From: an uncultured Gammaproteobacteria bacterium
Lineage (GTDB): Bacteria; Pseudomonadota; Gammaproteobacteria; Steroidobacterales; Steroidobacteraceae
Length of the DNA stretch: 64,000 nt
Assembly (NCBI GenBank): GCA_963804465.1
Contig: CAWDQL010000011.1
Coordinates: 3,884-67,883 of the forward strand
Direction: 5' to 3'
A program made the position numbers and the translations under genes. The notes below the pieces were generated by a model, which saw nothing but the letters and a program-made list of their open reading frames with translations, searched no databases and was not told where the DNA came from. This document shows, piece after piece, positions 4,518-56,939 of the stretch. The first letter of the stretch is position 1. Each line of letters opens with the position of its first letter.

Positions 4518-5007
4518 CGAGCGCGATCACGAAGCCAAAAATGACCGTAAAGAAGTCGATCGTCAACGCAGTGACATAGGCTGCGGCGGTGTATTGGAGG
4601 CCTTCTAAAACGTAACCAAGCATCGCCAGTGTCACAGCGGAGCCGAGTACAACGAAAACCGCGAATATCGCGGGCGGCGGTAGTTTGCCGACCACCTTGC
4701 GGCGTCGGCACGGATAGGTGACCTGAAGAGACAGCATCGGTAGTGCGAAAAGCACGCCAGAGGCTCGCCAGATCCACTTTTCCTGAATGTCATAGAGCCC
4801 AAGTAGCGCCGGCAGCAGCGCACCCGCCGTCAATACGAAAATGTACGTCATGACCGTTTTTGCAAGGTATCTGTCGAGCAGTGACAACTTCGCTCCAGCG
4901 GCCGGTCGGAGGGTCAACAAGAGCGCCGAGAACCCCGCGAACGTGATCATCAGGCCGGCCAATGTGTACAAAAGGGTTGCACCTTTGATTTCCATGTTTT
5001 GCTCCAC
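4465..5007 (-). CDS. Hypothetical integral membrane protein (about 5 TM helices)
   Basis: 180-aa ORF with repeated hydrophobic 20-aa stretches (LLYTLAGLMITFAGFSALLL, TYIFVLTAGALLPALLGL, FAVFVVLGSAVTLAMLGYV, FFTVIFGFVIALDVI). I recognise no family. Confidence 0.5.
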   Translation of the reverse strand: MEQNMEIKGATLLYTLAGLMITFAGFSALLLTLRPAAGAKLSLLDRYLAKTVMTYIFVLTAGALLPALLGLYDIQEKWIWRASGVLFALPMLSLQVTYPCRRRKVVGKLPPPAIFAVFVVLGSAVTLAMLGYVLEGLQYTAAAYVTALTIDFFTVIFGFVIALDVIMQQPMEVSERPAPH

Positions 5008-5253
5008 CTAAGAACCAAACGTTTGCCAGCGTGGCCAAGCTGAAAGCATGTTCCTCATCGAATTGCGTGCGAGCAATGCGGCGTTCTTTTTGTCGATCGA
5101 CGGCTTCCCCGGTTGAAGCCGCACCCGGTCGCATCAGCCAGTGGCCGACTGATTAGGGCTGCATCGGTCTCGCGCCAAGTTGGGACAGTGCGATCGCCAA
5201 TCCAAAAGGGGGACCGGCGTGCTTCGCACCGGCCGCTGGAGGCACACCGCAGC

Positions 5254-28746: not shown

Positions 28747-29447
28747 CCCTCTGCCTCTCGCGATGGCGCGGCAGACGAGAGCGTATAGCCGACGCCGCGC
28801 ACCGTGTGGATGAGCGGAACCGACGCATCCTTGTCGATCTTGCTTCTCAGGCGACTGATATGTACGTCGATTACGTTGGTCTGCGGATCGAAGCGATAGT
28901 CCCACACCGACTCCAGCAGCATGGTCCGAGTTACGACGCGTCCCTGGTGCAGGAGCAGGTAGGCGAGCAGGCGAAATTCCCGCGGTTGCAACGCGATGGG
29001 CCGCCCGGCTCGCTCCACGCTGCGGGCGATAAGATCCACCCGCATATCGGCTACGCGCATCTCCCGCATAGCCTCGTCCGGTTGTGAGCGCCGCAGGACG
29101 GCCTCGATACGCGCCGCAAGCTCGGAGAACGCGAACGGCTTGGTTAGATAGTCGTCGCATCCGTCCTTGAGGCCGCGGACCCGCTCATCGGTCGCAGCAA
29201 GTGCGCTCAGGACGACGACCGGGGTCTTGCGGCCTAATGAGCGCAGTGTCCTGAGTATCGACAGGCCGTCCACGTCGTTCGGCAGCATGCGGTCGAGGAT
29301 GATCAGGTCCCATGCGTCTTCCACCGCTCGGCCGATGGCGTCGACGCCATTTCGGCAGACGGCGACCCCCCAGCCGAGCTCGCGCAACCCGGTAGCAACG
29401 TATTGGGCGTTCTCCGTGTCGTCCTCGATGATGAGGCAACGCCGCAT
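28743..29447 (-). CDS. OmpR-family response regulator
   Basis: MRRCLIIEDD..., DLIILDRMLP, and a winged helix with REFRLLAYLL..., VHISRLRSKIDK and IHTVRGVGY. Confidence 0.9.
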   Translation of the reverse strand: MRRCLIIEDDTENAQYVATGLRELGWGVAVCRNGVDAIGRAVEDAWDLIILDRMLPNDVDGLSILRTLRSLGRKTPVVVLSALAATDERVRGLKDGCDDYLTKPFAFSELAARIEAVLRRSQPDEAMREMRVADMRVDLIARSVERAGRPIALQPREFRLLAYLLLHQGRVVTRTMLLESVWDYRFDPQTNVIDVHISRLRSKIDKDASVPLIHTVRGVGYTLSSAAPSREAEG

Positions 29448-42389: not shown

Positions 42390-42469
42390 CTACAAAGATG
42401 TCGCGCAGACGGCGATTTCGGACGTCCGACGCTAAGCCTGGCCGCCTTAACGCCTTTATGGCCGATTCG

Positions 42470-42527
42470 GGCTGCGAAGTCGGAACGCACGAGGAGTACG
42501 ACAAGATCGACGCGGAGACAGTGTGAT
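42470..42527 (+). pseudogene. Last ~15 codons of a HigB-family toxin gene
   Basis: Hand translation gives ...GCEVGTHEEYDKIDAETV*, matching the conserved HigB_toxin C-terminus (..FVGTHAEYDKID..). The stop overlaps the antitoxin start (GTGTGATGA). The upstream sequence shows no HigB similarity. Confidence 0.45.
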
Positions 42528-42900
42528 GAAAGCCACCTTGTTCGTCATTGAAAATGACAGAGATCACGCCGAGGCGAAGGCGTTGATCAAGACGCTCATC
42601 GGATCCGAGGATGCCGCGGATCAGGCGCGCATGACAGCTCAGGCACGTCTGATCGAGGCCTACAAGCGCGCCCGCTGGCCGCGGCGCACGCCGTCGCTGC
42701 CGGACCTCCTTACCTACTTAATGGAGCAGCACGGTCTTCGCGGGCTGATTTGGTACCACTTCTGAGGACGCCCAGCCGGTCTTCTGAACTCAACAGCGTG
42801 TCTCCAGATGGCGGCCATAGGACCACTGGGCCTGTTGCTATCCGGTCACTTCTGATTGTTCGATGTCTGAAATGTGACAGTGACCGAGGCCTTCTTATCA
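42523..42900 (+). pseudogene. HigA-type (XRE HTH) antitoxin gene with multiple frameshifts
   Basis: ORF 42523..42765 reads KATLFVIENDRDHAEAKALIKTLIGS...RLIEAYKRARWP...LLTYLMEQHGLR. The expected continuation ADLVPLL..PSRSSE.. is in the next frame (ORF 42750..), and a further shift follows (..LQMAAIGPLGL..). Confidence 0.55.
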
Positions 42901-43109
42901 GCGAAGGATTTTCGAAGGAATTTGCAGAGTTACAGCGCAATCCAATACTGGCCGGCTGCGCTTTGCACAAACCCGCACGGCGACCCAAGCTCCCCAGCTA
43001 GCGTGAAATGCCGCGCGTGCCACCTTTGACATCTGACGGTGCAGGGCGTATTTATTTCTTCGGTCGGGAACGCTAGAACAAGACTAAACAGTATCCGCGG
43101 GAGACTCAG

Positions 43110-44546
43110 ATGACCTCACGCGAGTTAAGCTTTGAGTTTTTTGCCGCTGTGAGGCTGTTACGACTTGGCTCCCTGGCCACGTTGGTCCTCGGCGGATCGG
43201 CGCTGATGCTCGTTTCAATGCCGGCACAAGCCGTCCCACCTTTCGCCCGGCAGACGGGTTTGGCCTGCGAGGCCTGCCATACAGTACCCCCGGAGCTGAC
43301 GGCATTCGGCCGGCGCTTCAAGCTCAACGGATACACCCTGACCACGAGACCACCGCTGGTCCAGGACGTCGACGACTACAAGCGGAACACGGTATGGCTC
43401 TCCGATCTGCCGGGACTCGGCATCCTGTTGCAGGCCACCTACAACCATTACGACCGGGCGCCACCCGATAGCCAGGTGCCTGGCGCCACTGCGCAGAGCG
43501 AGAATCTCGAGTTTCCACAGCAATGGAGCATCATCGCCGCCGGGGCGGTCACCGACCACGTCGGTGGCTTTCTGCAGATGACCTATACGCAGCCCAGCGG
43601 GACGTTCGGCGTCGATAACACCGAGATCAGATATTCGGACCACACGGATAACAATGATTGGGTCTGGGGCTTGCTGGCCAACAACAATCCGGGCAACCAG
43701 GATGTATGGAACTCGGTTGGGGCGTATCCCACCCTCGACTTCTCCAACCAGTCGCTCTGGAGTTCGGGAGGAATCGCCGGCGCCGCCCTGTCTGGGCCGT
43801 TCTTTGAGGGCCTTGGGGGGTTGGTAGCCGGTCCGACCGCCTACGTCTGGTACAAGGATTCGTTTTATCTTGGACTGTCCGAGTATCACGCCGCCGTGTC
43901 CGGCAGTGTGAGCACCACGCTCGACAGCAGCAACCTCGCCGTGGGCGGCGGCGTCGTCCAGAATTGGGCCCCGTATTGGCGCGCCGCCTATGAGCACGAC
44001 TGGGGCTACAACGCGATATCGGTTGGCACCAGCGGCATGTACACCAAGTTCACGCCGAGCCTCATCGCGGGCCAGACAGTCGACCCCGGATTCATCAACC
44101 GCTATCTGGATGTGAGCGTTGACACGCAGTACCAATACAACGGTCAACACAACAATGTCTCGTTCCTCGCCCGCTACACCCATGAGACCCAGGAGAACGA
44201 CCCCGGGCTGGTGCCGACCTATTTCAGCAACTCGGTCGATCATCTCGACGCATGGAACGTGACGGCAACGTATTACTACAACCGTCACTATGGCGGCCTG
44301 ATCAACTTCGCTCGCACCACCGGTACTTCCGATGCCACCTTCTATGGAGGTAGTGGCTCACCGGGCAACCAGTACGAGGTGTTCGAGCTCGACTGGCTGC
44401 CCTGGTTCAACTTCAGGTTCATGCTGCAGTACAACGTTTACCAGGTCGTCAACAACAACCAGAACCCGTTCATTCTCTTGCAGGCAAGCCATCCCAAGGC
44501 ATCGGACAACAACACGTGGGATTTGGGCCTATGGATGGACTTCTGA
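43110..44546 (+). CDS. Cyc2-like fused monohaem cytochrome-porin (outer membrane)
   Basis: 478 aa. Signal peptide ends AQA|VPPF. PPFARQTGLACEACHT carries the CXXCH directly after the cleavage site, then FGRRFKLNGYTL. About 420 aa of alternating-polarity strands follow, rich in Y/W/G/N, and the C-terminal residue is Phe (LGLWMDF), as in OM beta-barrels. Confidence 0.6.
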   Translation: MTSRELSFEFFAAVRLLRLGSLATLVLGGSALMLVSMPAQAVPPFARQTGLACEACHTVPPELTAFGRRFKLNGYTLTTRPPLVQDVDDYKRNTVWLSDLPGLGILLQATYNHYDRAPPDSQVPGATAQSENLEFPQQWSIIAAGAVTDHVGGFLQMTYTQPSGTFGVDNTEIRYSDHTDNNDWVWGLLANNNPGNQDVWNSVGAYPTLDFSNQSLWSSGGIAGAALSGPFFEGLGGLVAGPTAYVWYKDSFYLGLSEYHAAVSGSVSTTLDSSNLAVGGGVVQNWAPYWRAAYEHDWGYNAISVGTSGMYTKFTPSLIAGQTVDPGFINRYLDVSVDTQYQYNGQHNNVSFLARYTHETQENDPGLVPTYFSNSVDHLDAWNVTATYYYNRHYGGLINFARTTGTSDATFYGGSGSPGNQYEVFELDWLPWFNFRFMLQYNVYQVVNNNQNPFILLQASHPKASDNNTWDLGLWMDF

Positions 44547-45214
44547 TGAAAACCCTGACAAGTAATGTGGTCATGGTCGCCGCGATCGCACTCACGGCCA
44601 CAACCGTTCGTGATGCACCTGCGGCGCCGCTGCCGCCTGTAGGCGGCACGACGAGCGTCGTGCCGCCTGATGCCTCGACTTTGGACGCTCGGGCGCTGGT
44701 GAGCATGGCCTGCTCCAAGTGCCATGGCGCTAACGGAGTCAGCATCTCGCCGCTCTTTCCTATTCTGGCCGCACAGCGACCGGGCTACATCGAGATGGAG
44801 TTACAGCTATTTCGGCAGCGTGAGCGCAGCGATCCCCACGCGCGCGCCTTCATGTGGGGGATAGCGCGAGCTCTTACTGACGAGCAAATCGAGGGGCTCG
44901 CGCAGTACTTCTCGAGCCAACCACCCGCGAGCGGCACGCCGTCGCGCGACCCAGCCTTGGCCGAGAAGGGCAAGAGGATCTATGAAAACGGGGTGCCGGA
45001 GCGTGACATTCTCGCTTGCCTTCCCTGCCACGGTCCCAACGCCGAGGGAGTGCGCACATTTCCACGGCTGGCCGGCCAGCATCGAGACTATCTTGCGCGA
45101 GAACTGCACGAGTTCACCGGTCAGCTGCGCGAAAGCGAAGTCATGCATCGCTTCACTCAAAACCTCACCGCGGGTGAGATCGCCGCAGTGACCGAGTATC
45201 TTGCCTCCAAGTAG
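44546..45214 (+). CDS. Periplasmic dihaem cytochrome c4-type protein
   Basis: The ATG at 44546 overlaps the preceding stop. Signal peptide, then two CXXCH motifs (CSKCHGANG, CLPCHGPNAEG) in two ~90-aa repeats. Confidence 0.8.
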   Translation: MKTLTSNVVMVAAIALTATTVRDAPAAPLPPVGGTTSVVPPDASTLDARALVSMACSKCHGANGVSISPLFPILAAQRPGYIEMELQLFRQRERSDPHARAFMWGIARALTDEQIEGLAQYFSSQPPASGTPSRDPALAEKGKRIYENGVPERDILACLPCHGPNAEGVRTFPRLAGQHRDYLARELHEFTGQLRESEVMHRFTQNLTAGEIAAVTEYLASK

Positions 45215-45219
45215 ATCCT

Positions 45220-46008
45220 GTGTCGGAGAGGGAAGCGATGAATAGCCGAACAAGCGGAGGAATGCAGTGCTCGCGCCGGTCGTTTTGGCTGCCTGCGGGA
45301 TTGGCGGTGCTCGGGATCGCCGGTTCATTGGCGGCGCTGCCCGCATCAGCCGACTACCAGGTGGTCGCCGTCACTAACGGCGGCACCATCGACGGTGTGG
45401 TTACGCTCTCAGGCGCCGCGCCCGCCATGCCGCCGATCAAGGTCGACAAAAATCCGGATTACTGCGGAGCGAGTATTCCCGATCCGACGTACACGGTCGG
45501 TTCTTCCGGCGGGTTGGCGAACGTGATTGTCTATCTCAAGGACATCACCAAGGGCAAGGCTGCGCCCAGCGAACCGCTGGCGTTGGTCAACAACCATTGC
45601 ATGTTCTCGCCGCGAGCGCAGGGAGCGATGGTCGGGGAACAGATCAAGGTCTCCTCGGACGACCCGGTTCTGCATAACACCCATCTGCGATTCGGCCAAA
45701 ACAATGCGACGATTTTCAACATCGCGCTGCCTTTCAAGGGATTCTCCGTGACCAAGCCGCTGCCGGAGCGTCCGGGGCTGATCGATGTCAAGTGCGACGT
45801 ACACGAGTGGATGCGCGCGTGGATCATGGAACTCGACAATCCCTACTACGCGACGAGTGATGCTGACGGTCATTTCACCATCAAGGATGTGCCTGCGGGC
45901 AGCTACACGCTGGAGATCTGGCATGAGGCCGCAGGTGAGAAATCCCAGCCGGTGGTGGTCGCGGCCGGCAAAACCACCAAGTTGAAGATCACGGTAGCGG
46001 CAAAATGA
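45220..46008 (+). CDS. Tat-exported cupredoxin-like protein with CarboxypepD_reg-like beta-sandwich
   Basis: Twin-Arg signal CSRRSFWLPAGLAVLGIAGSLAALPASA. Candidate type-1 Cu ligands are H in DDPVLHNTHL and C-x2-H-x2-M in VKCDVHEWM (amicyanin-like spacing). The C-terminal DADGHFTIKDVPAGSYTLEIWHE is CarboxypepD_reg-like. Confidence 0.55.
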   Translation: MSEREAMNSRTSGGMQCSRRSFWLPAGLAVLGIAGSLAALPASADYQVVAVTNGGTIDGVVTLSGAAPAMPPIKVDKNPDYCGASIPDPTYTVGSSGGLANVIVYLKDITKGKAAPSEPLALVNNHCMFSPRAQGAMVGEQIKVSSDDPVLHNTHLRFGQNNATIFNIALPFKGFSVTKPLPERPGLIDVKCDVHEWMRAWIMELDNPYYATSDADGHFTIKDVPAGSYTLEIWHEAAGEKSQPVVVAAGKTTKLKITVAAK

Positions 46009-46072
46009 GCCAACTTCATCTCCGGGAGTTGCCCTGGCGGGTAAGGGATCGGCCTCATCGCGAGAGGTACAT

Positions 46073-46825
46073 ATGTTAGTTCGCGTCGCCCAATTGGTTC
46101 CGATGGTCGCGGGTCTGTTGCTTGCAGTTGGCACCGCCGGGGCGGACACCGGGGACGCTCGCAACGGCAAGGCGGTGTACGAACGTTGGTGCATCGGGTG
46201 TCACGGCGCGGAAGGCAACGGCCAAGGCGAGTCCGCCCAGTACATGAGCCCCAAGCCGCGAGACTATCGCGAAGGTACCTTTAAATGGCGCTCCACGCCG
46301 TCCGGCTCGCTGCCGCTCGACTCCGACCTCGAACACACCCTGCTGAACGGGGTCTACGGCACGTACATGCCGAGCTGGCGCTTCCTCGGTGAGCGGGAGC
46401 GTGAGGACGCAATCGCCTACATCAAGACCTTTGCGCCGCGATTCGCGAGTGAGCAACCCCAGAAACCGATCAGCATCCCGCCCAATCCGGGTTATGGCGA
46501 TGAGTCGGTCAAACGCGGAGCGGCGATCTACCAGAAGTACAACTGCGGACAGTGTCACGGCGCCGGCGGGCGCGGCGACGGGCCCTCCGCGCGGGGGCTC
46601 AAGGATGACTGGGGCAACGCCATCGTTCCGTACGACCTGACCAAGGGACACATCAAGTGCGGCGACGAGCCCACCGATATCTATCGAGTGTTCATGACTG
46701 GTTTATCAGGCACCCCCATGCCGTCGTTCGCCGACTCAATGAGCCCCGCGGACGCTTGGGATCTGGTGCACTTCATAGAGAGCTTGAGTCCGGAGTACCC
46801 GAAGAACGTGACCGCGGCTCGTTAA
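46073..46825 (+). CDS. Dihaem c-type cytochrome (paralogous to the C-terminal half of the CcoO fusion)
   Basis: Signal/anchor, then CIGCHGAEGNGQG and CGQCHGAGGRGDG. FKWRSTPSGSLPLDSDL parallels FKFRLTQGSLPTDGDL in ORF 48327..49934. Confidence 0.8.
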   Translation: MLVRVAQLVPMVAGLLLAVGTAGADTGDARNGKAVYERWCIGCHGAEGNGQGESAQYMSPKPRDYREGTFKWRSTPSGSLPLDSDLEHTLLNGVYGTYMPSWRFLGEREREDAIAYIKTFAPRFASEQPQKPISIPPNPGYGDESVKRGAAIYQKYNCGQCHGAGGRGDGPSARGLKDDWGNAIVPYDLTKGHIKCGDEPTDIYRVFMTGLSGTPMPSFADSMSPADAWDLVHFIESLSPEYPKNVTAAR

Positions 46826-46851
46826 AGACCCGACAGAACCAATAATCAGGG

Positions 46852-48330
46852 GTGAGCGCCATGCCAGAGGCGGGAACAGCAGCAGAGGCGTTGCACGGCC
46901 CATACGCGGGACTGGATCTGGATGCACTGGTCGATTGGCCGGTGGTGCGAGCCTGGCTGTACTGGGGCATGTTCTGGCTGATGGTCGCACCCACGGTGGG
47001 CGCGTTGCTCGCCGGGATGTTCGACTATCCCGAGTATCTCGGCACCAATCTGGCGCTGACCTTCGGGCGACTGCGCCCGGTGCATGTCAACGGCGTCATC
47101 ATGGGCGCATTCTCCGGCCTCTTTATCGGGGAATGCTATTACCTGGTGCCGCGTCTGTGCGGGGTGCGGGTCGCGTTCAATCGCTGGGGCGTCGTTTTCG
47201 CCTGGGTGTGGAACGTGTTCCTGGCGGCCGGACTGATCGCGATACCGCTCGGCTACAACCACGGGCTCGAGGCCGGCGAGCTGCCGCTGCTCGCGGAAAT
47301 TCCGATCTTTATCTGCACTGCCGTCGTCACTTTGCAGTTTCTGACGACGATCGGCCGGCGGCTGGATCCGGCGCTCTACGTGGCACTCTGGTACCTGATC
47401 GGTGCCTTCGTGTGGACGTCGCTGAATCTGGTATTGGGCAGTTTCATCCTGCCCTACACGATCGCGGGCATCAACAGTGCGGCGTTCCACGGACTCTATA
47501 TTCACTATATCGTCGGCCTGTGGATCACGCCGGCGGGTTACGTGTTGATCTACTATTTTCTCCCGCTCAGCGTGCGCAACCCGCTCTACGCTCACAAGCT
47601 CTCGCTGGTTGGGTTCTGGTCGCTCGCCTTGTTTTATCCCTTCGTCGGCATTCACCACTATCTCTACAGCCCGATCGCCGACTGGGCCGAGACGCTGGCG
47701 ATCATCACCTCGATGCTCCTGATCATTCCGGTGTGGACCGTGCTGGTGAACTTCTTCGGCACGGTGAACGGCCGCTGGCGCGAGTTCGGGGCGAATCTGC
47801 CGGCGAAATTCCTGATCATGGGCGCGATCATGTACTTCTTCGGCTGCTTTCAGGGCTCGCTCGAGGCGTTGCGCTCGATCCAGCAGCCAACCCATTTCAC
47901 GGACTTCGTGATTTCACATTCGCATCTCACGGTGTTCGGAACCTTCGTGGTGTGGGCGATGGGCGGATTGCTGTACATGTGGCCGCGCATGTGCGGGCGA
48001 GAACTGTGGTCGTTCAAACTCGGCAACTGGTCTTTTTGGCTGATCACGGTCGGCATCTCCACCATGGGTATTGTGCTGAGCGCCGCGGGTCTCCAGCAGG
48101 GCTTCCAGTGGATGAACGGCGCCGAGTGGGTGGACACGGTGGTGCAGATGCGGGCGTATTGGCTGGTACGCACCCTGGCGGGAATCTCGATGGATGTCGG
48201 GATGTCGCTCCTGGTCATCAATCTCATGATGACCGCTCTCAATAGGTCGGATAAGGCAATTGGCTTTAAGCCCGCCAGGCGTGAGCCAGACGGCTTGACT
48301 CCGGCTGCGGCCGGGGAGCTCGCCCGATGA
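46852..48330 (+). CDS. ccoN: cbb3-type (C-family) haem-copper oxidase catalytic subunit
   Basis: 492 aa, 12+ TM. RLRPVHVNG (haem b His), AAFHGLYIHY (helix-6 CuB His) and FYPFVGIHHYLY (Tyr six residues before the HH pair, i.e. the cbb3 cross-link Tyr plus CuB His pair). FVISHSHLTVFG is the HxH for haems b3/b. Confidence 0.9.
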   Translation: MSAMPEAGTAAEALHGPYAGLDLDALVDWPVVRAWLYWGMFWLMVAPTVGALLAGMFDYPEYLGTNLALTFGRLRPVHVNGVIMGAFSGLFIGECYYLVPRLCGVRVAFNRWGVVFAWVWNVFLAAGLIAIPLGYNHGLEAGELPLLAEIPIFICTAVVTLQFLTTIGRRLDPALYVALWYLIGAFVWTSLNLVLGSFILPYTIAGINSAAFHGLYIHYIVGLWITPAGYVLIYYFLPLSVRNPLYAHKLSLVGFWSLALFYPFVGIHHYLYSPIADWAETLAIITSMLLIIPVWTVLVNFFGTVNGRWREFGANLPAKFLIMGAIMYFFGCFQGSLEALRSIQQPTHFTDFVISHSHLTVFGTFVVWAMGGLLYMWPRMCGRELWSFKLGNWSFWLITVGISTMGIVLSAAGLQQGFQWMNGAEWVDTVVQMRAYWLVRTLAGISMDVGMSLLVINLMMTALNRSDKAIGFKPARREPDGLTPAAAGELAR

Positions 48331-49934
48331 ACGCCCGCATGGTCGCACTGGTGGCCGGGGTCGGCTTCTTCTTCCTTGCGCTGGTCACCCAGGGTGTGCT
48401 GCCCTTTTTCGAGCCCTCGGCGACCACCAACCACGTAACGGCCGTGATCCGCAACGATCTCGGCCAGCTTAAATGGATGGCAACGTCGGCCACCGACTAC
48501 ACGCCCCTCGAGAACCGAGGCAGGCTCATCTATCTGCGCGAGGGCTGTTGGTATTGCCATTCGCAGTACGTGCGGCCGGTGACCGGCGAGACGCGTCGCT
48601 GGGGACCGGTGAGCGAAGCCGGTGAATATGCGTACGACGTGCCGCATCTGTTCGGTACACGGCGTATCGGTCCGGACCTGACCCGCGTCGGGCTCAAGTA
48701 CGGCGACGAGTGGCACCTGGCGCATTTCTGGGATCCGCGCATGCTCACGCCCGAATCGATCATGGACCCTTATAGGGGCCTGTTCGATGCACCGTCGGAG
48801 GCGGTGAAGATCGTCGCGAGAACACCCTCGGGGCAGACGCTCGAGCGCACTGCAGTGACCGAGAAGCTGTTCGATTTCGCCAGCAAGGAGCAGGTGAAGC
48901 TCACGCCGAATGCCGACGGCCTGCTGTTCGTCCCGCTGGCCGCACAGGGCAAATACCCGGTGATCTGGACGCCCAACAAGGAATACGCCGGCGGCAGCGT
49001 CAAGCTTGCCATCGAGACCCAGGATGTCGAGGCGCTGATCGCCTACGTGCAGAAGCTCGGCATGAACCGCGGCAAGTGGCGGGATCTGTTCGAGCCGCAG
49101 CTGATGGACGGGGCCGGGTTGAGCATGCCGCGCTCGCAGGAATGGATTGAGCATGGCAAGGAGGTCTACGAGCGGCGCTGCATGGGTTGCCACGGTGTGC
49201 ATGGCGACGGCAATGGGCCGGCCGCAACCTTCCTGTACAAGCAACGGCCGCGCAATTTCACCCAGGGCGTCTTCAAGTTCAGGCTGACCCAGGGGTCGCT
49301 CCCGACCGATGGCGATCTGCTGCGCACCATAACGCGCGGGGTGCGCGGCACCGCGATGCCCCCCTGGTACAATTTGCCGCTCAATGATCGGCTCGCCGTG
49401 ATGCAGTACATCAAGTACGTGCTGGCGGTGGACCGCTCCGATCCCACGAAGCCCCAGTCCTACTTCCTCGAGCAGCCGCCCGACGTGCCCTTGTATATCC
49501 CGCCGCCGCCCGCCCCGACCCCGGCCCTCGTCGCGCACGGCAAGGAGGTGTGGCAGAACGCGAAATGCTGGCAGTGCCACGGCACGACCGGCAAAGGCGA
49601 TGGCGAGAGCGCGGTGGGGCTCGATGACGACTTCAATTTCCCGATTCGCCCCGCGGACCTCACCGGCGGCCAGTTCAAATCCGGCTCTTCGGTGACCGAC
49701 ATCTTCAGGACCATCTCCACGGGGTTCAGCGGAACACCGATGCCCTCCTACCACGACTCGTTTCCGGATGCGGACCGCTGGGCGTTGGCTTACTATATTC
49801 TGACGCTTTCCGCCTTCACTGACCCGCTGACGGGAGAGCCGTTGAAGATCTCTGCCGCGGATCGTGTGGCACTGGACAATCCGATGCTGGAAACGCCAGG
49901 TCCAGAGCAGGCCTATGGACTCATACAACCTTAG
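48327..49934 (+). CDS. CcoO fused to a dihaem cytochrome c domain (trihaem subunit)
   Basis: The N-terminal 200 aa are CcoO-like (TM anchor, YLREGCWYCHSQYVRP, GTRRIGPDLTRVGLKYGDEWHLAHFWDPR, SIMDPY). The C-terminal half has CMGCHGVHGDGNG and CWQCHGTTGKGDG. 4-nt overlap with ccoN. Confidence 0.85.
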   Translation: MNARMVALVAGVGFFFLALVTQGVLPFFEPSATTNHVTAVIRNDLGQLKWMATSATDYTPLENRGRLIYLREGCWYCHSQYVRPVTGETRRWGPVSEAGEYAYDVPHLFGTRRIGPDLTRVGLKYGDEWHLAHFWDPRMLTPESIMDPYRGLFDAPSEAVKIVARTPSGQTLERTAVTEKLFDFASKEQVKLTPNADGLLFVPLAAQGKYPVIWTPNKEYAGGSVKLAIETQDVEALIAYVQKLGMNRGKWRDLFEPQLMDGAGLSMPRSQEWIEHGKEVYERRCMGCHGVHGDGNGPAATFLYKQRPRNFTQGVFKFRLTQGSLPTDGDLLRTITRGVRGTAMPPWYNLPLNDRLAVMQYIKYVLAVDRSDPTKPQSYFLEQPPDVPLYIPPPPAPTPALVAHGKEVWQNAKCWQCHGTTGKGDGESAVGLDDDFNFPIRPADLTGGQFKSGSSVTDIFRTISTGFSGTPMPSYHDSFPDADRWALAYYILTLSAFTDPLTGEPLKISAADRVALDNPMLETPGPEQAYGLIQP

Positions 49935-49950
49935 GCGAGAGGGGTAGGTC

Positions 49951-50127
49951 ATGGCAGACTACGAAATACTCGGCCCCTACGCGCTGGCAATCCTGATGGG
50001 ATTGGGCTCCATATGTATCTTCATCTGGGGAGTCATGGGTGGAGCCCTGACTGAGACCGACCGGGCAGCCCTCGACTTCTATTACGCGGAGATGGCAAAT
50101 GACCAATTCAAGGACTCACACACATGA
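49951..50127 (+). CDS. CcoS-like small membrane protein (58 aa, below the ORF-track cutoff)
   Basis: Hand translation gives MADYEILGPYALAILMGLGSICIFIWGVMGGALTETDRAALDFYYAEMANDQFKDSHT. One TM followed by an acidic tail, as in CcoS/FixS. The stop overlaps the next start (ATGA). Confidence 0.45.
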   Translation: MADYEILGPYALAILMGLGSICIFIWGVMGGALTETDRAALDFYYAEMANDQFKDSHT

Positions 50128-50315
50128 CGGGTCATGACGCTCCGAACGCCGGGCACGAGACGCACGACCTGCATGAATACGCCGGTGGCTACATAAAGGC
50201 GCGCGAAGGGATCATTCCGGTCTGGTTGTTGGTTCTCTACTTCGGGCTGTTCGCGTGGTCGTGCTACTACCTCGTGCACTACTGGGGCGGACTCGGGCCC
50301 GGTCGAATCGGGTAG
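50124..50315 (+). CDS. Stand-alone FixP_N-like (CcoP N-terminal) membrane domain
   Basis: 63 aa. HETHDLHEYAGGYIKAREGIIPVWLLVLYFGLFAWSCYYLVHYW resembles the CcoP N-terminal domain (HxWDG..E..NPLP.WW...F..T..F...Y). Confidence 0.5.
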   Translation: MTGHDAPNAGHETHDLHEYAGGYIKAREGIIPVWLLVLYFGLFAWSCYYLVHYWGGLGPGRIG

Positions 50316-50505
50316 TCGGCGCGCTCAATCGGGGGGTGTCCTGCGGGCTCCCGAGCGGGTATCGGTAGGGTTTCTCAACCGGAGATCGAAGCTTTGCGCG
50401 GCGTCAAAATTCTGTTCGGGGTCGCGGTCATCAACCTCATGGTGTTGGCTTTTGAGCTCGCCATGAATGTGATCCGCACCGCACTCGGCTGAGAGGAACG
50501 CAACC

Positions 50506-50631
50506 ATGCTGGCTCAAACTGCATTCTCTTTTGCCAGGGCTAGCTCGCTGCAGGTCGTCGCGTTCGTCGGCTTCGCGGTCTTTATGGTCGGCTTCTTTAT
50601 CTGGGTCGCTTTGCTGGCGCGCAGAAAATAG
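50506..50631 (+). CDS. Possible CcoQ-like 41-aa single-TM peptide
   Basis: GAGAGGA lies 7 nt upstream of the ATG. MLAQTAFSFARASSLQVVAFVGFAVFMVGFFIWVALLARRK is a TM helix ending in W..RRK, like FixQ. The call rests on position and shape only. Confidence 0.3.
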   Translation: MLAQTAFSFARASSLQVVAFVGFAVFMVGFFIWVALLARRK

Positions 50632-50686
50632 CGGCCAGTCACCTGCCTTGCCCCGAAGGCGGGCGCTTTGTCGGGGCACATCGGCC

Positions 50687-51418
50687 ATGACCTACTACGC
50701 GCTGCTGTTCGTCGCCGGCATCGCGGGCAGTTTTCATTGCATCGGGATGTGCGGAGGCTTTGCCTGCGCACTGGGGGGTGATCCGCGCGGACCCGGCGCC
50801 ACCGCCGTCCGTCATGCGCTCTACAATACCGGAAGGTTGACCACCTACTGTTTCCTGGGAGGGCTCGCCGGCGGCCTGGGCTGGGCGATCTACATGTGCC
50901 TGGGGACAAGGTCGCAACTGGGAATTCCGCTCCTCAGCGAGTCGCTCAACGCTGCGCAGCGGGCTCTGGCCGTGATAGCCGGGCTCCTGATGATCCTCAT
51001 GGCGCTGCAGTTCTTCGGCTTCCGAGGCTTGCACCGCGTCGCGACCGGATTCGGCGGCTCGACGCTCGTCATCGCGTTGCGGAGCCTCCTCACCAGGCGG
51101 GGTCACGGCGCGCCGCTTGCCTTCGGTGTGCTCAACGGCTTTCTGCCGTGCCCCCTGGTCTACGCCATGCTCGCCCAGGCCGCGAGTACCTTTGACGTCC
51201 TGTCCGGCTGTCTCACCATGGCGGCGTTCGGTCTGGGAACCTTCCCGACCATGCTCGCCATGGGCGGACTCGGCCGGCTGCTTGCGCCCACGTGGCGGCA
51301 GCGCGGCGTCCGGCTGGCTGGGAGCTTCATCCTGGCACTGGGGCTCGTCACGCTCGGCCGGGGCATCGTCCCGATGGCGGCCGGCCACGGCCTGCACCAC
51401 CTCTGGCATTTCGCATGA
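50687..51418 (+). CDS. DsbD_2/TauE-like membrane protein with HCxxMCGG motif
   Basis: Start at the ATG at 50687. FHCIGMCGGFACAL and GFLPCPLVYAML motifs, 6-7 TM. The stop overlaps the ATPase start (ATGA). This family is commonly found next to ccoI/ccoS. Confidence 0.65.
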   Translation: MTYYALLFVAGIAGSFHCIGMCGGFACALGGDPRGPGATAVRHALYNTGRLTTYCFLGGLAGGLGWAIYMCLGTRSQLGIPLLSESLNAAQRALAVIAGLLMILMALQFFGFRGLHRVATGFGGSTLVIALRSLLTRRGHGAPLAFGVLNGFLPCPLVYAMLAQAASTFDVLSGCLTMAAFGLGTFPTMLAMGGLGRLLAPTWRQRGVRLAGSFILALGLVTLGRGIVPMAAGHGLHHLWHFA

Positions 51419-53607
51419 CGGCGCCTCCCGAGGGTCTGTGCCGCCACTGCCTGCTGCCGCTCGGGCGGCGTGGGTTTGCCCGCACCGTGAACGGCGAGAA
51501 TTGCCAGTTCTGTTGCTATGGCTGCTGCATCGCCTATCAGGTGAAGAGCGGCAGCGGCGAGGCGTCGGAGGCGGCGTGGCTCCTGGTGCGCCTCGGCGTG
51601 GGCAGCTTTTTGTCGATGAACATCATGCTGTTCAGCCTCTTAGTGTATTCGGGGGCGTTCACCGGGGCCGACCGGCGCGTGCTTCCCACGATTCATCTGC
51701 TACTCTGGGGGCTCGCGACGCCGGCGGTAGTGATCCTCGGCGAGCCTTTTCTGCGTGAGACTTGGTCGCAGGCTCGGCGCGGGCAGTTGAGCTCGTCCGC
51801 GCTCATCATCCTCGGCTCGCTTGCCGCTTACATCTATTCCACTCTCGCAGTCTTCCGGCTGGGCGGCCATATTTATTTCGATACCGCCGCGATGGTGCTG
51901 ATGCTGTTTACGCTCGGCCGCTATCTCGAAGCGGCAGGGCGCGCGCGGGCGTCGCGCGATCTCGCGCCGCTGTTGGCTGCGGAAAGCGAATCGGCCACGG
52001 TGGTTGAAGGGGTCGAAGAGCAGCGCCGGCCGGTGCGGGAGGTGCGTGCTGGGATGCTGGTGCGCGTCAAGCCGGGCGAACGGATCCCGGTCGATGGCCT
52101 GATCGTGGATGGCTGCTCGCATACTGATGACTCAGTCATCAGCGGCGAGAGCAGGCAGATCGCGAAGACGGTCGGCGGCTCGGTCCTCGCAGGCAGCATC
52201 AATCTTGACGGTCCGTTGCTGATCCGCAGCAGCGGCTCTGGAGACGAAAGTCGCTGGGCACAGATCTGCCGGTCGGTCCGAGACGCTTTACGGCAGTCGA
52301 GCCGCACGCAGCGTATCGCCGATCGCGTCGTGGGCGCGTTCGTGCCGTTCGTGCTCGCCCTCGCCGGCGTAACCCTGGCTTTTTGGGCACAGCGCCTGCC
52401 GCTCGATCAGGCGATGCTCGCTGCTCTCTCGGTGCTGGTGGTGGCCTGTCCGTGTGCGGTCGGCCTGGCCGCCCCGATGGCGCACTCGCTCGGCATCGGG
52501 CAGTTGGCCCGACACGGTTGCCTGGTCCGCAGTCCGGGCGCGCTCGAGGCACTGGCCGTCACGCGCCTGATCGCCTTCGACAAGACCGGGACGCTGACTC
52601 TGGGCTGGCCGCAGCTCGTCGATCTTGCGATCGATGGGGTAGGGGAGGATGAGGTACTCGCCCGGCTGGCGGGTCTGGAGCGCCATTCCGAGCATGGCTT
52701 GGCGCGTGCCATCGCTCTGGCAGCCAGCGCGCGCGGCCTCGATCCGATCGCCACCGAGGATGTCCGAATCGTTCCCGGACGCGGCTTGCGCGGCGTTGTC
52801 GATGGCGAGTGGGTCGCCGCCGGGAGTGCGGCGTTGATGCACGAGCTGGGCTGGCCGCTGCCGCCGGCCCTGGTCGAGCGCGCCGAGGCGATGGCGACGA
52901 GCGGCCATTCGGTGGTGTTCATCGGTTGGAGCGAGAAAGCCTGCGCCGGGCGGGCCCGAGCCGCGCTGTCGTTCGACGACACGCCGCTCCCCGAGGCGCG
53001 AGCCACCATTGAGGCATTGCGCGCTCTCGGAATCCGGGTGATGTTGCTGACCGGCGATCACGCGGGTGCAGCCGCGCGTGTCGCGGCCACGGTCGGCGTG
53101 GACGATTGGCAGGCCGGCCTCCTGCCGGAGGCCAAACGGATCGCTCTCGATCAATGCCGACCAAGCCACGGCGCCGTGGCGATGGTCGGCGACGGCCTGA
53201 ATGACGGCCCCGGACTGGCGTGGGCGGATGTCGGCATCGCCGTTGGCTCGGCGACCGATCTGGCACGCGAAACCGCCGATCTGGTGCTTCCTCGGGGCGG
53301 CCTCTGGCTGCTGCCCTGGGTGGTCGGCCGGGCCCGTGCGGTGCGTGCGAGTATCCTCAGCAACCTGGCATGGGCATTCGGCTACAACCTGATCGCACTG
53401 ACCTGCGCCGCGCTCGGGCTGCTGCAGCCGATCCTGGCGGCGGCTGTCATGGCCGGTTCGAGTCTGTTGGTCGTGCTGAACTCGCTGCGCCTGGAGCGAC
53501 TTCCCGGGCCAAGTTATCCGAGCGCGCTGCAGTCATCTGCGGCCGAGCGAGCGGCGAGTGAGCCGCAGCCTAGAGAGCAAGCCCCTACTTTCAAGGCAGC
53601 GGCTTGA
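51415..53607 (+). CDS. ccoI: CcoI/FixI-type copper-translocating P1B-ATPase
   Basis: N-terminal Cys cluster CRHC...CQFCCYGCC, TM CPC (VVACPCAVG), DKTGTLT and GDGLNDGP. Confidence 0.85.
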   Translation: MTAPPEGLCRHCLLPLGRRGFARTVNGENCQFCCYGCCIAYQVKSGSGEASEAAWLLVRLGVGSFLSMNIMLFSLLVYSGAFTGADRRVLPTIHLLLWGLATPAVVILGEPFLRETWSQARRGQLSSSALIILGSLAAYIYSTLAVFRLGGHIYFDTAAMVLMLFTLGRYLEAAGRARASRDLAPLLAAESESATVVEGVEEQRRPVREVRAGMLVRVKPGERIPVDGLIVDGCSHTDDSVISGESRQIAKTVGGSVLAGSINLDGPLLIRSSGSGDESRWAQICRSVRDALRQSSRTQRIADRVVGAFVPFVLALAGVTLAFWAQRLPLDQAMLAALSVLVVACPCAVGLAAPMAHSLGIGQLARHGCLVRSPGALEALAVTRLIAFDKTGTLTLGWPQLVDLAIDGVGEDEVLARLAGLERHSEHGLARAIALAASARGLDPIATEDVRIVPGRGLRGVVDGEWVAAGSAALMHELGWPLPPALVERAEAMATSGHSVVFIGWSEKACAGRARAALSFDDTPLPEARATIEALRALGIRVMLLTGDHAGAAARVAATVGVDDWQAGLLPEAKRIALDQCRPSHGAVAMVGDGLNDGPGLAWADVGIAVGSATDLARETADLVLPRGGLWLLPWVVGRARAVRASILSNLAWAFGYNLIALTCAALGLLQPILAAAVMAGSSLLVVLNSLRLERLPGPSYPSALQSSAAERAASEPQPREQAPTFKAAA

Positions 53608-53770
53608 AATTGCCCACACCCGGGGAGAGAGCGCCCCCACGACCGGAGACGCAAGTCCTTGCGTGCGCGTTCTTGGTTGCGAGCGAGCGGTCGGCTCCGG
53701 TGATGCGCCGGCCTCGGTGTACCCCCGGGGCCCGGCAGGGCGCTAGGACCTAACGAGGAGAGCGGAGACT

Positions 53771-54361
53771 ATGAAGCGGTACTTGCTGGCATTTTGCCTT
53801 GCCGTTTTTCCCGCGGCGATTTGCGCCCAACAGGCAGATCCCTGTGCCGGATTGGTGGGCGTTGCTCTAGGTCAGTGCCAAGCCAATCAGCAGAAGGTTC
53901 AACAGCAGCAGCTGGAGCAACAGCAACAACAACTCGCGCAACAGCAGCAACAGCTGGCACAACAGCAACGACAACTAGCAGAACAGCAGCAACAGCTGGC
54001 ACAACAGCAGCAACAGCTTCGAGAGCAACAGGAGCGACAGAACCAACTCAACGAACAACAACGGCAAAATCAACAGCAGTTGGACACTATGCGAGAGCAG
54101 AGTGAGGTTCTCAGTAAGCAAATGGAGCATGGGAAATCATCGAATCAATCTGTACAGCCAGCGGCGACAGATGATTCGAAGCGTCGAGAACTTAAGAGCT
54201 GGAAAGCAGACAATCCCTGGTACGGGACAGACTATGCTAGAACACAGCTTGCGATGCGCTATGCCAAGCAACTTCAACGCGAGCGGCCGGACCTGGTGGG
54301 TCGTCCCTTTCTTGATGCCATTTCAGCCAAGGTGAGGGACACATTCGGTCCAGGTCAGTGA
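53771..54361 (+). CDS. Secreted Gln-rich heptad-repeat (coiled-coil) protein
   Basis: Signal peptide MKRYLLAFCLAVFPAAICA, then six consecutive QQQLxxQ heptads (QQQLEQQ QQQLAQQ QQQLAQQ QRQLAEQ QQQLAQQ QQQLREQ). A non-repetitive C-terminal ~70 aa follows (WKADNPWYGTDYARTQLAMRYAKQL...). Confidence 0.6.
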   Translation: MKRYLLAFCLAVFPAAICAQQADPCAGLVGVALGQCQANQQKVQQQQLEQQQQQLAQQQQQLAQQQRQLAEQQQQLAQQQQQLREQQERQNQLNEQQRQNQQQLDTMREQSEVLSKQMEHGKSSNQSVQPAATDDSKRRELKSWKADNPWYGTDYARTQLAMRYAKQLQRERPDLVGRPFLDAISAKVRDTFGPGQ

Positions 54362-54402
54362 GGTTTGGCCGACGACCACGGCCGATCTTCCGGAGAACTC
54401 TA

Positions 54403-54624
54403 ATGCGCGGCGTCGTTTTCGGAATGTGTGCACTTGCTGCGGCCGGTGTGTTCGCCACGATGTTTCTTGCAATCTGGAGCTCCCGTCGTGCGAGCGACGA
54501 AGAGCAGAACTTACACCAGAGTGTCGTCAGCGAGTTCGTATGGGCGGCGATTCCGTGTCTGATGCTCATTGCGGCCGCCATCTCAGCGGCAATCGCGATC
54601 ATCGCGTCCAGGGCGCCCAACTAA
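54403..54624 (+). CDS. Two-TM mini-protein resembling the COX2 transmembrane domain only
   Basis: MRGVVFGMCALAAAGVFATMFLAIWSSRRASDEEQNLHQSVVSEFVWAAIPCLMLIAAAI follows the TM1-loop-(h)E(i)xW(t)xIP-TM2 pattern of cytochrome oxidase subunit II. No cupredoxin domain follows. Confidence 0.35.
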   Translation: MRGVVFGMCALAAAGVFATMFLAIWSSRRASDEEQNLHQSVVSEFVWAAIPCLMLIAAAISAAIAIIASRAPN

Positions 54625-55042: not shown

Positions 55043-56359
55043 CTAGCCGGGGATAAACATCCTCACCGCGGCCGCACCCATGACCGCGGTCGCAATCCAG
55101 CCGAGGATGATGAGCGGCCGACTCGCGGTGTAATCGCCCATCACGGACTTTTTTGATACCAGCAGGATGATGACGATCATGAGGGGTACTGCGACGACCC
55201 CATTAATGACCGCGCTCCAAAATAGGGCCTTCATCGGGCTGATCGGCGAATATTGGATGCCGAGACCCACGAGCACGCTGACAGCGATGACGGCGTAGAA
55301 TCCGCGAGCGTCAACTGCCTTGCGTTCAAGACCCCAGTTCCACCCCATGGCCTCGCAAAGTGCGTAGGCGCCAGAGCCCGCGAGCACCGGCACGCCGATC
55401 AATCCGACGGCGAGAATACCTAGGGCGAAGAGTAGGTAGGCAAAGTTACCCGCGAGCGGACGAAGAGCGCTCGCCGCCTCCGCTGCAGTATTGATGTCGG
55501 TTATTTGCGCGACGTTGAGCGTCACGGCGGTCGCCAGAATGATGAAGTAGGCTGTGACATCCGAGTAGAACATGCCGCTCCAGGTGTCCCAGCGGATGCG
55601 GTGCAGTTCCGAAGCTGCGTGGCTAGCATCGCGCACGAGCGGTGCGCTTCCCCGTGCGGCCTGCATGTCCTCGACCTCTTCGGATGCCTGCCAGAAAAAC
55701 AGGTAGGGACTGATAGTGGTGCCGAATACGCCGACCACTACCGCGGCCGTGTTGGAATTCACTGTGAAGCGGGGCCACACCGTGCGAAGCGCCACTTCAC
55801 CCCAGGGGACGTGAACCGTGAAAAGGACGGCCGCGTAGGCCAGCAGCGCGAGCGTCAACCACTTCAAGAAGAAAACGTAACGGTGATAGGGGACGAACAC
55901 CTGCAGCAGCAACGTTCCGATCACCAAGAACCCCGTCATGAGATGACGATTGAAACCCGTGACCAGCTCTGCGACTTCCCCCATCGCAGCAACGTCGGCC
56001 GCGATGTTGAGGGTATTGGCGATGAGCAGCAGCAGCACGACGCCTTGGAGCACCCCGGGGGGAAACGCGGTCTTGATATTCGCAGCGAGTCCTTTCCCGG
56101 TGACCCGGCCGATGAACCCGCACATCGACTGGATCGCGGCCATCAGCGGGAAGGCCAGCGGCATTGTCCATAGCATGTTGAGGCCGAACTGCGCGCCCGC
56201 CTGGGAGTAGGTCGCTATGCCGCTTGGATCGTCGTCGGCGACACCGGTAATGAGCCCAGGTCCCACGCGCGCCAAGGGATGCTCTTTCAGGCGACTCCAA
56301 AGGACCCGGAGTGCGGACTGACGCTGCGGTTCATGGCTTCCATCTCGAGAGCTGCGCAT
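55043..56359 (-). CDS. NRAMP-family transporter with non-canonical metal-site residues
   Basis: 438 aa, 11 TM. The TM1 motif is GPGLITGVADDDPSGIATY (DPSG instead of DPGN). The TM6 motif is GTTISPYLFFW (T-x-x-S instead of A-x-x-M). Confidence 0.85.
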   Translation of the reverse strand: MRSSRDGSHEPQRQSALRVLWSRLKEHPLARVGPGLITGVADDDPSGIATYSQAGAQFGLNMLWTMPLAFPLMAAIQSMCGFIGRVTGKGLAANIKTAFPPGVLQGVVLLLLIANTLNIAADVAAMGEVAELVTGFNRHLMTGFLVIGTLLLQVFVPYHRYVFFLKWLTLALLAYAAVLFTVHVPWGEVALRTVWPRFTVNSNTAAVVVGVFGTTISPYLFFWQASEEVEDMQAARGSAPLVRDASHAASELHRIRWDTWSGMFYSDVTAYFIILATAVTLNVAQITDINTAAEAASALRPLAGNFAYLLFALGILAVGLIGVPVLAGSGAYALCEAMGWNWGLERKAVDARGFYAVIAVSVLVGLGIQYSPISPMKALFWSAVINGVVAVPLMIVIILLVSKKSVMGDYTASRPLIILGWIATAVMGAAAVRMFIPG

Positions 56360-56432: not shown

Positions 56433-56939
56433 CTACGACACGTTCGCCGCCGATGCCAGGATCGTGTGGATCAGCTTGGTTTTGCTGTCCACGCCGACGT
56501 GCGCCTTCATCCCGAAGTACCACTGCTTGCCCTTCGCCACCTGGTGCATCTCAGGATCGCGCTTGCCGTCCTTGTTCTTGGTCGAGCTCGGCGCGCCGAT
56601 AATCGTCGCGTCCACGATAGTGCCGTTGGAGATCTTGATGCCGCTGCGGTGCAGGTGCTCGTTCACCGCGCGCAGCAGCGTCTTACCGAGCTTGTTCCTC
56701 TCGAGCAGGTGCCGGAACTTGCAGATCGTCGTCTCGTCGGGCGCACCTTCCGCCCCCAGGTCGATGCCCACAAAGCTACGCATCGCCGCCGAGTCGTACA
56801 GTTCTTCCTCCACCGCCGGGTCCGAGAGGTTGAACCACAGCTGCAGGAAGTAGATCCGCAGCATCCGCTCCAGCGGTATCGGCGGCCGGCCGCCTTGCTC
56901 GCCAATCTTCGGATACACCGTCGCCACCGCCGCGGTCAC
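56433..56939 (-). mobile_element. IS5-family transposase gene fragment (both ends missing)
   Basis: RPPIPLERMLRIYFLQLWFNLSDPAVEEELYDSAAMRSF...TICKFRHLLE...GTIVDATIIGAPSSTKNKDGKRDPEMHQVAKGKQWYFGMKAHVGVD...AANV is colinear with the IS5 InsH central region. It stops before the rest of the DDE domain. I found no inverted repeats. Confidence 0.8.

Follow-up and report, generated by a model that had tools for sequence, protein, structure and literature searches.

We analysed a 64,000-nt stretch of DNA (the window, to which coordinates refer unless another locus is named) from contig CAWDQL010000011.1 of assembly GCA_963804465.1, a Steroidobacteraceae metagenome-assembled genome (MAG) from soil. Its list of open reading frames (ORFs) contains 13 consecutive genes on the + strand, at 43110-54624, which code in order for a Cyc2-type porin-cytochrome (ORF1), a dihaem cytochrome c4 (ORF2), a cupredoxin (ORF3), a free dihaem cytochrome (ORF4), a CcoN-like oxidase subunit, a CcoO subunit fused to a dihaem module, three small membrane peptides, a DsbD_2-family membrane protein, a CcoI-type copper ATPase, a Q-rich secreted protein and an 88-aa membrane protein. 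An initial annotation had delimited a block of 11-12 ORFs at 43110-53607 and read it as a candidate conduit from the outer membrane to O2. All the ORFs that it listed are present on the + strand at the coordinates given there, and the gene set stands; the right end does not, as conservation continues through two further genes (53771-54361 and 54358-54624).

The small gaps and overlaps described at 44544/44546, 48327/48330, 50124/50127 and 51415/51418 are seen directly in the sequence. The stop codon of cyc2 and the start codon of the c4 gene overlap as TGATG (44544-44548), and stop/start overlaps of the form ATGA are found at 48327-48330, 50124-50127 and 51415-51418, making four overlaps in total. 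The remaining intergenic gaps measure 16-64 nt, with the exception of 190 nt ahead of the 41-aa ORF (50506). Shine-Dalgarno-like purine runs lie upstream of the non-overlapping starts, and the likely true starts were revised to 44546 for c4, 45238 for ORF3, 50687 for the DsbD_2 protein and 51415 for the ATPase. A consensus scan of the block returned no sigma-70-like promoter and its terminator-like hairpins do not exceed the level seen in shuffled sequence, so that nothing argues for internal transcript ends. Haem-binding CXXCH motifs number one in Cyc2, two in c4, two in the free dihaem cytochrome and three in the CcoO fusion. The arrangement is beyond chance, because many independent contigs have their genes in this order (see below), and the spacing points to a tight operon whose genes are probably co-transcribed.

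The predicted outer-membrane cytochrome and the periplasmic carriers

Keffer et al. 2021 (PMC8406198) define Cyc2 by a signal peptide, a single CXXCH, an upstream AXPXFAR[Q/K][T/Y] motif that they state to be unique to Cyc2, a PXL 4 residues past the CXXCH, a minimum length of 365 aa and a 16-strand porin. ORF1 (43110..44546; 478 aa) has each of these features. By inspection, its hydrophobic N-terminus ends in AQA followed by VP, a cleavage region that aligns in 38 homologues, and residues 8-34 form a lone helix in the AlphaFold2 (AF2) model. CEACH (residues 53-57) is the sole CXXCH, AVPPFARQT occupies residues 41-49, with F45 nearly invariant and A46, R47, Q48 and T49 invariant in the alignment, and PEL is found at residues 61-63 (H57-T-V-P-P61-E-L63), where P61 and L63 are again invariant; overall, the motif residues are invariant or nearly so across the 38 homologues, the identities of which go down to 41%. 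The AF2 model (predicted local distance difference test score, pLDDT, 75.6; predicted template-modelling score, pTM, 0.76) contains the 16 long strands of the barrel that had been anticipated, with the haem segment modelled at low confidence. Its top Foldseek matches are the 16-strand porins OmpF/OmpC/Omp-Pst and OprP (2o4v), with E values of 1e-8 to 1e-10; OprP is the reported modelling template for Cyc2 (Keffer et al. 2021, PMC8406198).

No Pfam or NCBIfam family matched ORF1, neither library having a model that covers Cyc2, and a sequence search against all PDB chains returned nothing useful. The NCBI annotation is 'hypothetical protein'; a 64%-identical homologue bears the JGI label 'iron:rusticyanin reductase', and the Cyc2 of Acidithiobacillus ferrooxidans has been reported as linked to heterotroph homologues. 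Judged by its motifs and modelled fold, ORF1 is a Cyc2-type fused cytochrome-porin, as the initial annotation had proposed, and a predicted outer-membrane Fe(II) oxidase.

ORF2 (44546..45214; 222 aa), originally taken for a c4-type dihaem cytochrome, does consist of two class-I cytochrome c domains, each with a CXXCH (CSKCH and CLPCH). Its best solved relative is 1H1O, the c-552/Cyc1 of A. ferrooxidans, with an E value of 2.7e-33 over 172 residues, while other solved c4 cytochromes match ten orders of magnitude more weakly (E about 1e-22).

The third gene (45238..46008) required greater depth of search. Pfam identifies a C-terminal CarboxypepD_reg (transthyretin-like) domain and gave no match for the excised cupredoxin domain; a shallow family profile run against the PDB matched the C-terminal domain only, hhalign with the same shallow alignment reported a probability of 1.3%, and the AF2 model is poor (pLDDT 48.7 overall and below 50 over residues 111-206). 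The cupredoxin signal became significant only with a deep alignment, built from a search of 1.8 billion representative sequences, in which the family comprises 918 clusters (at 50% identity) at E <= 1e-30. All of the 57 diverse homologues aligned (32-47% identity) keep H152, C192, H195 and M198. The deep profile matches amicyanin (E 7e-8), the cupredoxin domain of nitrite reductase (E 2e-8) and also pseudoazurin, and hhalign aligns it with plastocyanin, amicyanin and pseudoazurin at 95% with the ligands in register, the reference sequences in this comparison having been entered by hand. Because of this invariant H/C/H/M set and the profile and hhalign matches, we consider ORF3 an amicyanin-like cupredoxin with a transthyretin-like tail, an assignment from sequence profiles. 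It had been annotated as a 'Tat-signal cupredoxin'; the cupredoxin part holds, by the deep profile only, but the twin-arginine translocation (Tat) signal is uncertain, as the twin-arginine is not conserved among close homologues. In public databases members of this large family are named 'carboxypeptidase regulatory-like domain protein' or 'polysaccharide lyase family 4 domain II' despite their invariant type 1 copper ligands. A lone copy of ORF3, 70% identical, occurs in locus L089.

Downstream of ORF3, the second dihaem cytochrome of the initial description is confirmed in ORF4 (46073..46825), a periplasmic protein with the motifs CIGCH and CGQCH. It matches chain B of 6H5L, the dihaem partner of a Kuenenia enzyme resembling hydroxylamine oxidoreductase (HAO), with an E value of 1e-55, and shares 44% identity with residues about 276-495 of CcoO, of whose C-terminal extension it is a paralogue. 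In one sub-clade (L014, L015, L060 and L101-L128) the order of the cupredoxin gene and the free dihaem gene is swapped, giving cyc2-c4-dihaem-cupredoxin-ccoN.

The oxidase and its maturation genes

The catalytic subunit (46852..48330) matches Pfam COX1 at 2.8e-68. The six haem/CuB histidines and the helix-7 cross-link tyrosine (Y-x5-HH) are in register with the CcoN of 9g6b/3mk7, so that every haem and CuB ligand is kept, as expected from the initial CcoN call. Identification as a nitric-oxide reductase was considered and rejected, the E value being about 1e-50 against solved cbb3 CcoN and about 1e-8 against NorB. Both this subunit (217.6 bits vs the TIGR00780 cut-off of 583) and CcoO (138.4 bits vs the TIGR00781 cut-off of 200.7) fall below the equivalog cut-offs, and the oxidase is best placed in a divergent C-family (cbb3-type) subfamily rather than with the canonical enzyme.

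CcoO (48327..49934) contains, according to Pfam, a FixO domain at residues 54-246 followed by two cytochrome c domains and carries the three haem motifs CWYCH, CMGCH and CWQCH; solved CcoO structures match at its N-terminal end and 6H5L_B at its C-terminal end. The CcoO::dihaem fusion recognised earlier is thereby upheld. The block has no separate CcoP gene: its dihaem module sits on CcoO, where it takes the place of CcoP, and a FixP_N-like peptide is encoded apart.

Three short membrane peptides follow. The first (58 aa; 49951..50127) is weakly FixS/CcoS-like, with a sub-threshold FixS match (E 0.071), and is 76-91% identical in all full-block loci. The second (63 aa; 50124..50315) resembles the N-terminal helix of CcoP (FixP_N; E 6.6e-4, 19.8 bits vs a cut-off of 24.9) and is likewise kept in all full-block loci. 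The third (41 aa; 50506..50631) has no family match; every full-block locus has it, at 68-88% identity, it is called as a gene in L088, and most contigs of a sister cassette (described below) that reach far enough have it at 49-66% identity. Such conservation makes a genuine oxidase-associated peptide very probable. Thus, the labels CcoS-like and FixP_N-like given initially remain below threshold and CcoQ-like is without a match, but the peptides themselves are conserved in every related locus.

The next gene (50687..51418) specifies the membrane protein singled out for its HCxxMCGG motif, which belongs to PF13386 (DsbD_2; 2.4e-42). In locus L037, a member of this family is encoded between ccoI and cyc2, and the protein's putative role would be in oxidase maturation or in thiol or metal handling. 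The last of the maturation genes (51415..53607) codes for a copper-translocating P1B-ATPase of the CcoI/FixI type, as annotated: it scores 434.5 bits against the TIGR01511 cut-off of 397, and its sequence contains the CPC motif and an N-terminal CxHC...FCCYGC. The N-terminal metal-binding domain PF12156 was not reported in this ATPase and is present in the CcoI of L037.

Conservation and genomic setting of the block

To place the block among genomes, we scanned for Cyc2 in one genome per species and counted over the 80 best species genomes. At least 579 genomes have the Cyc2 motif and a confirmed relative. Among the 80, a c4 homologue lies directly downstream of the Cyc2 homologue in 76, with three of the four exceptions at a contig edge, and the full block is found in seven, all of them Steroidobacteraceae-like gammaproteobacterial MAGs; three contigs from the European Nucleotide Archive (ENA) add to these. 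A CcoN-based metagenome search, which removes the bias of selecting by Cyc2 and was limited to contigs with at least 4.1 kb of upstream DNA, found cyc2-c4 upstream in 23 of the 24 contigs with a CcoN at least 87% identical. The gene order sought in other genomes therefore recurs by both routes (7/80 and 23/24). In L037 and L084, loci of other gammaproteobacterial genomes, cyc2-c4 comes after a canonical ccoN-ccoO-ccoP-ccoG-ccoI-DsbD_2 cluster, on the same strand; in L037 (1346-11964), cyc2 and c4 begin 30 nt after the cco genes. Because this arrangement is separate from the block, cyc2-c4 has joined cbb3 clusters more than once.

A sister cassette, with CcoN 76-81% identical, retains the cupredoxin, CcoN, CcoO::dihaem, the peptides, the DsbD_2 protein and the ATPase (loci L131-L169, L099 and L123; e.g., L142 7269-9845). 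None of the 18 sister contigs with enough upstream DNA has cyc2. The slot of cyc2-c4 is instead filled by a metallophosphoesterase and a SoxA/TsdA-type monohaem cytochrome, often with a flavoprotein resembling that of flavocytochrome c sulphide dehydrogenase (FCSD) nearby, and two contigs with a group-A-like CcoN have the metallophosphoesterase/SoxA-like input in place of cyc2-c4. Together, these loci suggest that electron-input modules are exchangeable ahead of the oxidase, and a slot holding alternative redox modules is what would be expected if the upstream genes feed it.

Nucleotide comparisons reveal a mosaic at the left end of the block. From about 44650 on, L091 and L002 are 91-99% identical to the window; across the porin part of cyc2 (43450-44500) their identity is only 59-78%, and L092 presents the reversed mosaic. 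This pattern suggests either recombinational allele replacement or strong diversifying selection on a surface-exposed protein. To the left of the block (42390-43150), no relative remains similar beyond about 50 nt ahead of the cyc2 start codon. In nine related loci, an OmpR-type response regulator and a histidine kinase lie directly upstream of cyc2; they are absent here and in many others, the sole two-component genes of the window (27388-29441, minus strand) being paralogues of 35-44% identity. Ahead of the two-component system in L002/L003, about 4 kb upstream of cyc2, genes for a DoxX protein and a multicopper oxidase occupy 4480-6262.

On the right, the ATPase gene is followed by that of the Q-rich secreted protein (53771..54361), for which no family match was found. 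This protein also comes after the ATPase in L002, L003, L008, L009, L010, L013 and L088 and divergently upstream of cyc2 in L011 and L012, which are without the oxidase; because it stands beside cyc2 even in such loci, it appears to travel with cyc2. The 88-aa membrane protein (54358..54624), 93% identical in L002 and L003, ends the DNA shared with the closest relatives, nucleotide homology extending to about 54598. The block adjoins a gene for an Nramp divalent-metal transporter (55043-56359, minus strand), and in the betaproteobacterial MAGs L021 and L061 Nramp homologues are found 3-4 kb past cyc2. Decayed insertion-sequence (IS) and toxin-antitoxin genes had been reported on the flanks. 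The IS gene is borne out by a truncated transposase (56433-56939, minus strand) made up of DUF772 and the first 60 of the 200 positions of a DDE domain, but the toxin-antitoxin call is not: the 'decayed antitoxin' at 42523-42765, which we take to resemble the HigA type, has no family match. A frame-broken ORF lies just upstream of the block, and neither the GC profile nor base composition gave a foreign-island signal. The surroundings include genes for a lactate permease, LutB, two glutathione S-transferases, a short-chain dehydrogenase/reductase, KatG, a resistance-nodulation-division (RND) pump and UvrB, in line with the organoheterotrophic context first ascribed to them.

Proposed electron route, rival explanations and significance

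The closest parallel to this arrangement is the Fe-induced rus operon of A. ferrooxidans (cyc2-cyc1-cup/acoP-coxBACD-rus). Both have cyc2, a dihaem c4/cyc1 gene and a cupredoxin gene in this order, then a terminal oxidase, with oxidase biogenesis genes alongside, and the parallel drawn in the initial annotation is sound in this respect. However, the oxidase is of the C-family (CcoN/CcoO::dihaem) in the block and an aa3 enzyme in rus; the block has no rusticyanin gene, its cupredoxin is amicyanin-like with a transthyretin-like tail and without a specific match to AcoP, it adds a dihaem cytochrome, and its maturation genes are of the cco type (Cu-ATPase and DsbD_2). The hosts also differ, one being an uncultured soil Steroidobacteraceae and the other an acidophilic autotroph. 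By analogy, the block is a cbb3 counterpart of the rus iron-oxidation operon, with a correspondingly predicted function.

The published Cyc2 -> Cyc1 -> cbb3 model for neutrophilic iron oxidisers (Mariprofundus, Gallionellaceae), in which the genes are not reported to form a single unit, as well as the Cyt572/Cyt579/cbb3 route of Leptospirillum, involves the same three kinds of components and the same direction of electrons as the block. In Leptospirillum the genes are reported not to be clustered, and in Ferrovum JA12 the locus tags of the cyc2-like gene (FERRO_13930) and of the cbb3 genes (FERRO_02560/02570) are far apart, whereas in the block all the genes are contiguous; the block further departs from the neutrophile model in its divergent CcoN and in the replacement of CcoP by the fusion on CcoO. 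The same pairing of Cyc2 with a Cyc1-like c4 is found in heterotrophs (Bradyrhizobium, Rhodanobacteraceae, Burkholderiales), but there the pairs stand alone or beside genes for high-potential iron-sulphur proteins (HiPIPs) or other cytochromes, outside oxidase operons, while the pair described here lies inside one. Such heterotroph pairs and a Cyc2-like gene in a Steroidobacteraceae MAG have already been reported. With the canonical ccoNOQP-ccoGHIS genes the block shares CcoN, CcoO, a CcoI-type Cu-ATPase, a small FixS-like peptide and a DsbD_2 neighbour; it differs in having no separate CcoP and no CcoG, in CcoN and CcoO lying far under the equivalog cut-offs and in its attached, dedicated input genes. 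The exact arrangement had initially been thought undescribed, and a literature search found no account of cyc2 inside a cbb3 operon, a weak negative given that most subscription journals lay outside its coverage; the available portions of papers on Tenderia, Manganitrophus, Ferrovum and Antarctic chemolithotrophs do not describe Cyc2-cbb3 adjacency.

The Cyc2 -> c4/cupredoxin -> cbb3 interpretation put forward at the outset gains support from the motifs, the barrel, the likeness to Cyc1, the CcoN ligands and the conserved order, and the predicted function can be set out as follows. Cyc2 in the outer membrane would take one electron at the single haem inside its 16-strand porin and pass it to the Cyc1-like dihaem c4, the gene for which appears translationally coupled to cyc2. 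From c4 the electron would move to the cupredoxin and/or the free dihaem cytochrome, then to the dihaem extension of CcoO, and through CcoO to CcoN, where O2 would be reduced; the small peptides, the DsbD_2 protein and the CcoI Cu-ATPase would assemble and metallate this oxidase. On balance, we think the block is probably a self-contained respiratory operon, carrying electrons from a small dissolved extracellular reductant, probably Fe2+, to O2, with the order of the periplasmic carriers as proposed and energy presumably conserved in the process. From homology and synteny, its function is most likely Fe(II)-to-O2 respiration in a heterotroph.

Several considerations weigh against this proposal. 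Cytochromes of the c4 type are ordinary electron donors to cbb3 oxidases. The oxidase cassette occurs without Cyc2 in the sister clade and is hence not intrinsically an iron oxidase system. The DNA upstream of the block is unconserved and the two-component system is missing, which makes expression in this strain uncertain, and no carbon-fixation or reverse-electron-flow genes were found in the 64-kb window. Finally, Keffer et al. 2021 (PMC8406198) deem the function of Cyc2 homologues outside their Cluster 1 uncertain.

We rank as the main rival, though an unlikely one, the explanation that the genes are simply adjacent: a generic micro-oxic oxidase would be fed from bc1 via c-type cytochromes and the cupredoxin, with cyc2-c4 serving separately, e.g., in surface Fe(II) detoxification or redox sensing. 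The cassette with a cupredoxin but without Cyc2 in 39 related contigs is consistent with this, as are the cyc2-c4 pairs without a nearby oxidase in about 69 of the 80 genomes and the mosaic breakpoints, which split cyc2 from the rest of the operon. However, cyc2-c4 is upstream in 23 of the 24 contigs of the nearest oxidase clade, the gaps are small with no terminator standing out, the association with cbb3 recurs in a second, unrelated arrangement (L037, L084), and the sister cassette fills the same slot with a different redox module. All of these argue against simple adjacency.

Even with such a conduit, the donor could be something other than free Fe2+, such as complexed Fe(II), reduced humics or quinones, Mn(II) or Cu(I) in soil that is acidic and rich in organic matter, which we regard as quite improbable. 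For Ca. Manganitrophus, Mn(II) has been suggested as the substrate of Cyc2 homologues, and Cyc2 genes have been discussed for extracellular electron transfer linked to dissolved organic matter in bog lakes; Keffer et al. 2021 (PMC8406198) also allow additional functions for Cyc2, and the Nramp importer beside the block, with its counterparts near cyc2 in L021 and L061, would fit another donor. Against this, every biochemically tested Cyc2 oxidises Fe(II) (Keffer et al. 2021, PMC8406198), and the small pore with its internal haem is predicted to admit small dissolved ions only. The end of similarity within about 50 nt of the cyc2 start, the absent two-component system, the frame-broken ORF upstream and the truncated transposase downstream might together be taken to mean that a rearrangement removed the upstream control region, leaving a silent or decaying remnant. 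This strikes us as very improbable: none of the 13 reading frames is broken, their identity to relatives is 88-97%, many related contigs are likewise without the two-component system, and Shine-Dalgarno-like sequences stand ahead of the genes.

Where the pH is not extreme, iron oxidation is currently explained by a route from Cyc2 through a periplasmic cytochrome to cbb3, a working model that rests mainly on co-expression and on genes scattered over the genome. Here, the whole route, including oxidase assembly, is found in one operon that recurs in many soil genomes and mirrors rus, the only experimentally dissected iron-oxidation operon, and thus lends independent genomic support to the Cyc2-cbb3 model. 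As a compact, clonable unit of 11 kb, the block is also suited to heterologous tests of that model. More tentatively, we propose that the abundant, uncultured Steroidobacteraceae of soil and peat may carry a family of portable cassettes for lithotrophic respiration. Each would comprise a dedicated oxidase of the divergent cbb3 type, its own cupredoxin and maturation genes, and interchangeable inputs (Cyc2-Cyc1 for Fe(II), or a SoxA-like cytochrome and metallophosphoesterase for another donor), the cyc2 porin being swapped by recombination between operons that are nearly identical elsewhere. If true, this would make organoheterotrophs significant, so far uncounted oxidisers of Fe(II) in soil. 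The block suggests that a common soil lineage, whose key gene still goes under the name 'hypothetical protein', may oxidise Fe(II) lithoheterotrophically, and this bears on the way in which metagenomes are interpreted with respect to iron and carbon cycling in soil and peat.

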